A DNA stretch of 64,000 nt. It comes from Escherichia coli (lineage in GTDB: Bacteria; Pseudomonadota; Gammaproteobacteria; Enterobacterales; Enterobacteriaceae). The DNA lies in the NCBI RefSeq assembly GCF_017348835.2, contig NZ_CP071375.1. One strand, written 5' to 3'. The position numbers were made by a program. This document shows, in pieces, positions 44,401 to 47,400 of the stretch. Within the stretch, counting starts at the first letter, position 1, and each line of letters starts with the position of its first letter.

Positions 44401-47400
44401 ATGTGATCGATTTTGTCGGGTGCGATCCCCGGTCCATCATCGTTAACTTCGCAGTGCAGCCAGCCGTGACGGTAGTGCAATGTTACGCTAATTTCGCCAC
44501 CGGGTTCCGGCCCTAATGCTTCCAGCGCGTTTTCTATCAGATTTCCCAATGTGGTAATCAGCGTCGCGACCTGGTCCTCACTGCCGCTGTCTGGCAGCTG
44601 GCTTTCACTGTTTAAAATCAGCGTATGGCCTAAATCGGTCGCGCGGTTAATCTTGCTGATTAAAAAACCAGCGATAACCGGAGATTTGATCTTACCCAGC
44701 AGAGAGCCAATCTCTTCCTGATAGTTATTGGCTGTTTTGAGAATGTAATCTTCCAACTGCTTATAACTCTTCAGATGCAATAATCCGAGAATCACATGCA
44801 ATTTATTCATAAATTCGTGGGATCGTTCACGAAGTGCGTCAGCATAGTTGACCAGACCATCGAGTCGCTGCATCAGTTTACGTACTTCGGTTTTGTCCCT
44901 GAAGGTTGAAATGGCACCGATGATAACGCCATTACTGCGCACCGGAACGGTGTTGATCAGTAATAGCCGGTCTTTAATCGTAATCTCTTCGTCGCGGCGC
45001 GGGGTACCGTCGCGTAACACCTCCGAGACATCTACCACCTGTGACCATGAGTGGCTTAGCGTCGACAGTTTCTCATCGTCCTGCGACTTACGGTAATTCA
45101 GCAATTCTTGTGCGGCATCGTTGATCAGCGTGACCTCGCCGCGATCATCCACGGCAACGACGCCTTCTTTGATAGACTGCAACATGGCCTGGCGTTGCTC
45201 AAACAGCGTGGAGATTTCGTAGGGTTCCAGGCCGAAAAGGATTTTTTTCAGTACCTTAACCAAAATGCAGGTGCCAATCAGTCCGACCAGCATGCCAAAT
45301 AATACCGACCAGATAATGCTCCAGCGACTGTCATTGATCTGTTGGGTCACGCGGCTTAACTCAAGGCCGATCGCCACCACGCCAATTTGTTTATGATTTT
45401 CATCGTAGATGGGGGTAAATACGCGTAAAGCCTGCGCCAGAAAACCGCGATTGATAGCGACATTTTCTTCGCCATTCAGCGCTTTAAGGATGTCATCACC
45501 TTTAAATGGCTGACCAATACGCTGGGCTTCAGGATGCGAGTAGCGAAGACTTTGCATATCGGTAACGACAATAAACAGCAGATCGTTGCGTTTGCGCACG
45601 GCTTCCGCGATGGCCTGGATGCCGCTCTCCTGCGGTTTTTTCTGCAAGCCCTGACGGATTTCCGGCGAGTCGGCGAGAGTACGCGCCACAGCCAGTGCCT
45701 TGTTGGCTAGCCCGTCTCGCGTCATATCACTGATTTGCGAGAAGTAAATCAGATGCACCACCAATAGCACCGAGAACAGTACCGCGCTGACCATTAAGAT
45801 CACTGTGGTACTCAATTTCATCGGACGTTTGCGTAACATGCGGTAGGGCAATGAATGTCTCATCAGCTTCCTTGTGTGACAAATTTCTTAAGCATTATCT
45901 CTGATGAGGCGGGTAATTCAAAGGGAGTAAGAATGATTGGCTATATAGGGGAAGAGACTCTGGCAACGGAAACTGCCAGTGCTGTATGAAGATTCCGGGG
46001 CTATGCTTATAGTGAAAACCATACTGATGAGAGAGGGAAGGTCATGGATCAGGCGCTACTTGACGGGGGTTATCGCTGTTATACCGGCGAAAAGATCGAT
46101 GTCTATTTCAATACTGCAATATGTCAGCATTCTGGCAATTGCGTACGTGGTAACGGCAGGTTATTTAACCTCAAACGTAAGCCGTGGATCATACCGAATG
46201 AAGTCGACGTTGCCACTGTGGTTAAAGTGATTGATACGTGCCCGAGCGGCGCGCTGAAATACCGTCATAAATAAGCGAGGGTAAAATGGAAATACGCGAA
46301 GGCCACAATAAATTTTACATTAATGACGAACAAGGCAAGCAAATCGCTGAAATTGTCTTTGTGCCGACCGGAGAGAATTTAGCGATTATCGAACATACCG
46401 ATGTCGATGAAAGTCTGAAAGGGCAAGGGATTGGTAAACAGCTGGTTGCGAAAGTCGTGGAAAAAATGCGTCGGGAAAAACGAAAAATTATCCCACTATG
46501 CCCATTTGCGAAACACGAATTTGATAAAACGCGGGAGTATGATGATATTCGCAGTTGATGGGAGAGTACAGATTCACGATATTTTTCATGCTCTCCACGG
46601 TGTGATGCAGGAGAGCATCTGAAGGGTAGGGGGATGCACAAAGAATGGGCAGAGAGCGCGTTTTTTTGTCCCAAGTCATCCCCTTTACTGAGCAAAAAAA
46701 AGAATATCTCCTATATGAGAATCATCAATCGGGGTTAATAAGTTTTGCGTCCCCAGAGCGTTCAATATTGATAGGAGTCATATTATGGAAGGTAAAAACA
46801 AGTTCAATACTTATGTTGTTTCTTTTGATTATCCATCATCTTATTCCTCAGTGTTCTTAAGGTTAAGATCATTGATGTATGATATGAATTTCTCTTCTAT
46901 CGTGGCTGATGAATATGGGATACCACGACAATTGAATGAAAATTCCTTCGCAATAACGACATCGTTAGCCGCAAGTGAAATCGAAGATTTAATCAGGCTT
47001 AAATGCTTAGACTTACCGGATATTGACTTTGACCTCAACATTATGACAGTTGATGACTATTTCCGTCAGTTTTACAAGTAGCCAGGAAGGATAAGAAGAA
47101 CATAAAAAATGGCACTATTCTCTAAAATATTAATTTTTTATGTGATTGGTGTGAACATATCCTTTGTCATTATCTGGTTTATCTCACATGAGAAAACACA
47201 TATTCGTTTACTTAGTGCATTCCTGGTCGGAATAACCTGGCCAATGAGTCTGCCTGTGGCATTACTTTTTTCTCTCTTTTAGGAGCTGTAGTTGAGTGGA
47301 CCCGCTGGTTATCGTGAAACGAAGCGTCTCTCCTCAAAACTGGATTTGCGGAACGATGAACGAAGCAGTCGCCTGACTGCTTCGTTCACTAAAGTGAAAT

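Follow-up and report, generated by a model that had tools for sequence, protein, structure and literature searches.

Does the window, a stretch of 64,000 nucleotides from Escherichia coli analysed as a whole, carry an intact copy of the ghoS-ghoT toxin-antitoxin pair, or only an ORF pair that resembles it? The ghoS-ghoT pair is the founding type V toxin-antitoxin system. Type V systems are defined by a protein antitoxin that degrades the toxin mRNA and does not bind the toxin protein (PMC4010927, PMC4905990), and the mechanism of GhoS and GhoT has been described in several papers (PMC4010927, PMC5812544, PMC6273597, PMC8309996). The locus was almost certainly the chromosomal ghoS-ghoT (yjdK-yjdO) type V operon, complete and unmutated, to which the published mechanism would apply by identity of the proteins.

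Identity and arrangement of the pair

The features of the locus are collected in Table 1. A sequence-only reading had described a 98-aa antitoxin followed 27 bp later by a 57-aa toxin, and its coordinates and lengths were all correct by ORF calling and by reading of the DNA. It had also placed the toxin below the size cut-off of the ORF track. This was borne out, with a default cut-off of 60 aa; ghoT was found when ORFs were listed at min_aa 30. The recovery of this short gene by DNA reading was correct, and the import of the result is mainly one of annotation.

Table 1. Features of the ghoS-ghoT locus, with positions in the window
Feature	Position	Strand	Description	Source
ghoS (yjdK)	46785..47081	+	ATG start, 98 aa, type V antitoxin (endoribonuclease by identity)	ORF call, PF11080
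ghoT (yjdO)	47109..47282	+	ATG start, 57 aa, membrane toxin by identity	ORF call, PF10753
ghoS-ghoT spacer	47082..47108	+	27 bp, purine-rich	read from DNA
Shine-Dalgarno-like AGGAG	46773..46777	+	7 nt upstream of ghoS ATG	sequence reading, computed motif and spacing
Hairpin between ghoT and lysU	47357..47388	.	14-bp perfect stem, 4-nt loop	RNA fold

The two genes were adjacent and co-oriented on the + strand with the antitoxin gene first, which is the type V arrangement. The distance from the ghoS stop codon to the ghoT ATG was exactly 27 bp (CCAGGAAGGATAAGAAGAACATAAAAA), and this spacer was purine-rich (AGGAAGGA...AAGAAG).

GhoS matched its Pfam family profile, PF11080, over positions 6-93 of the 94 in the profile, and the score of 138.8 bits (E 6.1e-41) was far above the cut-off of 21. 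The protein was 100% identical to K-12 b4128, with five differences in the DNA, all synonymous, and all 98 of its 98 residues were identical to chain A of PDB 2LLZ. This entry, titled 'uncharacterized protein YjdK', is the NMR structure of GhoS. Residues R28, L25 and M31 were wild type as read from the translation. R28 is described as the most important GhoS residue for RNase activity, and the combined changes of L25 to I and M31 to L give the artificial toxin ArT (PMC4010927). Given its 100% identity to the reported protein, GhoS would be an endoribonuclease specific for ghoT mRNA (PMC4010927, PMC5812544). GhoS is also a reported structural homologue of Cas2, the CRISPR-associated endoribonuclease (e.g., SSO1404), with conserved catalytic-site residues (PMC4010927, PMC5812544). 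In contrast to Cas2, a CRISPR context was absent at ghoST and GhoS had no match to the Pfam Cas2 family; the likeness in fold is that reported in the literature.

GhoT matched the Pfam profile PF10753 (Toxin_GhoT_OrtT) over its full length, positions 1-55 of 55, at 90.4 bits (cut-off 22.1; E 8.9e-26), and both its DNA and its protein were 100% identical to K-12 b4559. The earlier description of the product as a two-helix membrane peptide agreed with the hydropathy profile, which gave a GRAVY of +1.5 and two hydrophobic stretches, at about residues 3-25 and 34-57, with the polar loop SHEKTHIR between them. Two transmembrane segments have been predicted for GhoT in the literature as well (PMC4344625). 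F38 was retained, and the F38R replacement abolishes GhoT toxicity (PMC4344625). By identity, GhoT may be expected to damage the membrane, deplete ATP and give rise to ghost cells (PMC4344625, PMC8309996). In these respects it resembles type I membrane toxins such as Hok and TisB, which are likewise small hydrophobic inner-membrane peptides that lower the PMF and ATP and whose control acts on the mRNA (PMC8309996, PMC5812544). The difference lies in the antitoxin, which is an antisense RNA in type I systems and, in ghoST, a protein RNase whose gene precedes the toxin gene on the same strand.

A search with the NCBIfam HMMs gave no match for GhoS or GhoT. The RefSeq names of the pair evidently stem from other PGAP evidence, and this null result does not speak against the assignment. 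On the sequence evidence, both ORFs are real genes rather than chance ORFs, because of the Pfam E-values of 6e-41 and 9e-26, the 100% identity to the K-12 proteins and the annotation of the pair in thousands of RefSeq genomes.

Genomic place, conservation and intactness

The gene order around the pair was dcuR-dcuS on the - strand, yjdI-yjdJ-ghoS-ghoT on the + strand, and then the convergent lysU and dtpC, as in K-12 (MG1655, NC_000913.3 was used as the K-12 reference). Both proteins, the ghoT DNA, the 27-bp spacer, the flanking genes and the asymmetry in GCU sites described below were the same as in K-12 ghoST, and the differences consisted of only the five synonymous ghoS substitutions and a few intergenic SNPs. 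Within the 226 bp upstream, near the genes, a single base differed, at 46763.

The spread of the locus was followed by megablast in complete E. coli genomes with positions 46600-47400 as the query. The locus was found in 5341 of the 5426 genomes, nearly always as a single chromosomal copy, and the matches carried the RefSeq annotations 'type V toxin-antitoxin system endoribonuclease antitoxin GhoS' and 'toxin GhoT'. It was absent from 85-93 of the 5426, and about 60-77 more held a partial copy (about 77 at <80% coverage). One example genome (named H51; strain ECNB21-M121) retained only 34 nt of the locus. Three ghoST copies in the genome collection were plasmid-borne.

Six strains spanning the range of identity within the species were compared, namely K-12, O157:H7, APEC O18, MY504, FDAARGOS_1268 and KK19-02. 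GhoT differed among them by synonymous changes only. GhoS showed synonymous changes and one replacement, N85S, in two of the strains (APEC O18 and MY504). The 27-bp spacer was identical in five of the six and carried one difference in O157:H7. Both the ghoS and the ghoT frames are thus, to judge from these substitutions, under purifying selection, because the differences between strains were almost all synonymous.

Two doubts about the coding regions could be settled by these comparisons. One is that the 57-aa ORF encodes not GhoT but its orphan paralogue OrtT (YdcX), or that it is a hydrophobic ORF that arose by chance. PF10753 spans both GhoT and OrtT, and OrtT is likewise a 57-aa protein with two predicted transmembrane segments and F38; however, it is only 63% identical to GhoT, has no adjacent antitoxin, is not controlled by GhoS and carries two GCU sites in its mRNA (PMC4344625). 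The ORF studied here lay directly 3' of ghoS, had no GCU site, as is the case for ghoT, and was 100% identical to K-12 ghoT b4559 in DNA and protein; chance was excluded by the E-value of 9e-26. The OrtT or chance reading, which we regarded as having hardly any probability, was ruled out by the exact identity to K-12 GhoT. The other doubt is that ghoST is present in this strain and inactivated, as a pseudogene or through a crippling mutation. The locus is lost or truncated in some E. coli genomes, yet no evidence of inactivation was found in this strain: the frames were full length, the proteins were identical to the functional K-12 GhoS and GhoT, and the spacer and the ghoT DNA were identical to K-12; upstream, only the one base at 46763 differed. 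An inactivated copy was accordingly ruled out at the coding level by identity to the K-12 proteins, and we considered it extremely improbable overall.

The genuine ghoS-ghoT pair is thus the reading carried forward. The similarity check proposed with the earlier reading gave residue-for-residue identity of both proteins to K-12. Its claim of an intact pair also held, since both frames ran to full length uninterrupted by a frameshift or stop codon and the key residues were wild type, as did its listing of the pair as a known system, here the canonical K-12 ghoS-ghoT at the usual chromosomal site. There is nothing new at this locus: it is a canonical known system in its canonical place, shared by >98% of complete E. 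coli genomes.

Expression signals, mechanism and native role

The start of ghoT was preceded by AGGA only at 17 and 21 nt before the ATG, together with the purine-rich AAGAAG. No canonical Shine-Dalgarno sequence at optimal spacing was present before the ghoT ATG in 47082-47108. This suggests that initiation of ghoT translation may be weak or coupled; the initiation signal looks weak because the AGGA motifs sit 17 and 21 nt from the ATG.

In the 226 bp that precede ghoS, no site was convincing as a sigma-70 promoter. A scan of 46500-47450 gave one promoter-like site on the + strand, in the 3' end of yjdJ, and the count did not exceed that in shuffled sequence. A consensus scan of the same interval gave no intrinsic terminator downstream of ghoT. 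The promoter and terminator scans say nothing on the operon boundaries. No Rfam family matched in or near ghoST at gathering thresholds. The hairpin between ghoT and lysU (Table 1) had no T-run directly after its stem on either strand. It may be a shared transcript end of ghoT and lysU or a stabilising structure; as a shared transcript end it is no more than a candidate, because a T-run is not adjacent and no terminator was called.

The GCU triplets, the sites of the MqsR type, were distributed unevenly between the two genes. Three were present in ghoS (46905-46907, 46997-46999 and 47005-47007) and none in ghoT, against 2.2 expected from composition. The same count of 3:0 was seen in all six comparison strains. 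The mqsRA genes, which would control the pair from upstream in the cascade and lie ~1.2 Mb from ghoST in K-12, fall beyond the 64-kb window. The presence of three GCU sites in ghoS and none in ghoT agrees with the published MqsR cascade, and ghoT is among the just 14 E. coli mRNAs reported to lack GCU (PMC4344625, PMC4905990, PMC10643148).

From the identity to the K-12 proteins, the pair would be expected to work as follows. The two genes would be carried on one transcript, antitoxin gene first, and the stable Cas2-like endoribonuclease GhoS would cut this mRNA in its ghoT part and thereby keep GhoT synthesis low (PMC4010927, PMC5812544, PMC6273597). In stressed cells, MqsR, a type II toxin, would cleave mRNA at GCU. 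GhoT would then be translated, because MqsR would spare the GCU-free ghoT while the ghoS part, with its three GCU sites, would be destroyed. The 57-aa two-helix inner-membrane peptide would damage the membrane, the PMF and ATP would fall, and 'ghost' or dormant cells would result. The action of GhoT would also raise tolerance (PMC8309996, PMC4344625). No sequence evidence against the operon reading of ghoST was found. The strain carries the canonical type V module that the literature ties to membrane-damage dormancy, biofilm formation and antibiotic tolerance.

The native role of such a module could differ from this scheme. GhoS and GhoT might be genuine and still form no classical toxin-antitoxin switch in the native state, with GhoS tuning other transcripts (e.g., purine and pyrimidine genes), GhoT barely expressed and 'type V TA' largely an overexpression phenotype. 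Overproduced GhoS is reported to degrade about 20 further mRNAs, including those of pur genes (PMC4010927), and this reading would also fit a ghoT without a Shine-Dalgarno sequence at normal distance, a scan that gave no clear promoter for ghoS-ghoT and the many chromosomal TA deletions that, according to reviews, have no phenotype in MG1655 (PMC10643148). We nevertheless consider it unlikely, given that published work describes phenotypes of ghoS deletion, an enrichment of ghoT mRNA that depends on MqsR, and metabolic effects that depend on GhoT (PMC5812544, PMC4344625, PMC10643148), and given that the 3 to 0 asymmetry in GCU was kept in all compared strains. The GhoT peptide also appears to be under selection, because its amino-acid sequence did not change from one phylogroup to another. 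What chromosomal TA systems do physiologically is debated in general (PMC10643148), and the identity of the locus is unaffected by that debate.

The base composition raises a related possibility. The ghoST segment (46600-47400) had a GC content of 33.5-39% in 400-bp windows compared to 51% for the whole window, with 34.7% in ghoS and 35.1% in ghoT, and this low-GC islet was flanked by the core genes yjdJ and lysU. Low GC between core genes suggests that the islet was acquired horizontally long ago. It is a further step to regard ghoST as a horizontally acquired cassette with a native role other than persistence, such as anti-phage abortive infection or stabilisation of a chromosomal segment. 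That step seems very improbable to us; searches with PADLOC and PHROGs gave no matches, so an origin as a defence system or from a phage was unsupported.

Other features of the window

Away from ghoST, the window departed from K-12 MG1655 at several places. At about 7467-7676, ~6.8 kb of the K-12 sequence (4306822-4313662) was missing, and ~200 bp without a K-12 match stood in its place. The K-12 genes absent there were alsK-alsE-alsC-alsA-alsB-alsR and the start of rpiB.

Two RNA families were recorded. A tandem array of REP325/naRNA4 (RF02564) occupied 19701-20578 on the - strand, with nine copies at 100-bp spacing; the array was ~200 bp longer than that of K-12, and a single extra copy lay at 17145-17225 on the + strand. 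The enterobacterial sRNA STnc630 (RF02052) had a full-length match at 26248-26413 with 181.8 bits. Colinearity with K-12 places this match in the proP/pmrR region.

Colinearity with K-12 was lost inside pheU at about 56774-56775 (K-12 4362573). The remnant of pheU comprised ~23 nt of the 3' end of the tRNA, and a tRNA search of the window with ARAGORN found none. A pheU-associated genomic island began at this point and reached the end of the window (about 56775-64000). Its genes included DUF4942, DUF957 and DUF987 genes, an SdiA-regulated-domain gene, an EspG-domain gene and transposase remnants. The island also carried a degraded module of the cbeA/cbtA type, in which cbeA, the gene of a type IV antitoxin, was truncated. 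Fragments of DUF5983 genes were present as well.

The stretch that contains the island (56600-64000) was matched over at least 80% in only 5 of the 5426 genomes. The pig strain PE164 (NZ_CP114128.1) matched both this stretch and 46600-47400 at 100% identity. A second pig strain, F2_81, was reported at 100.0% on both stretches, although its bit score for the island stretch was slightly below that of PE164.
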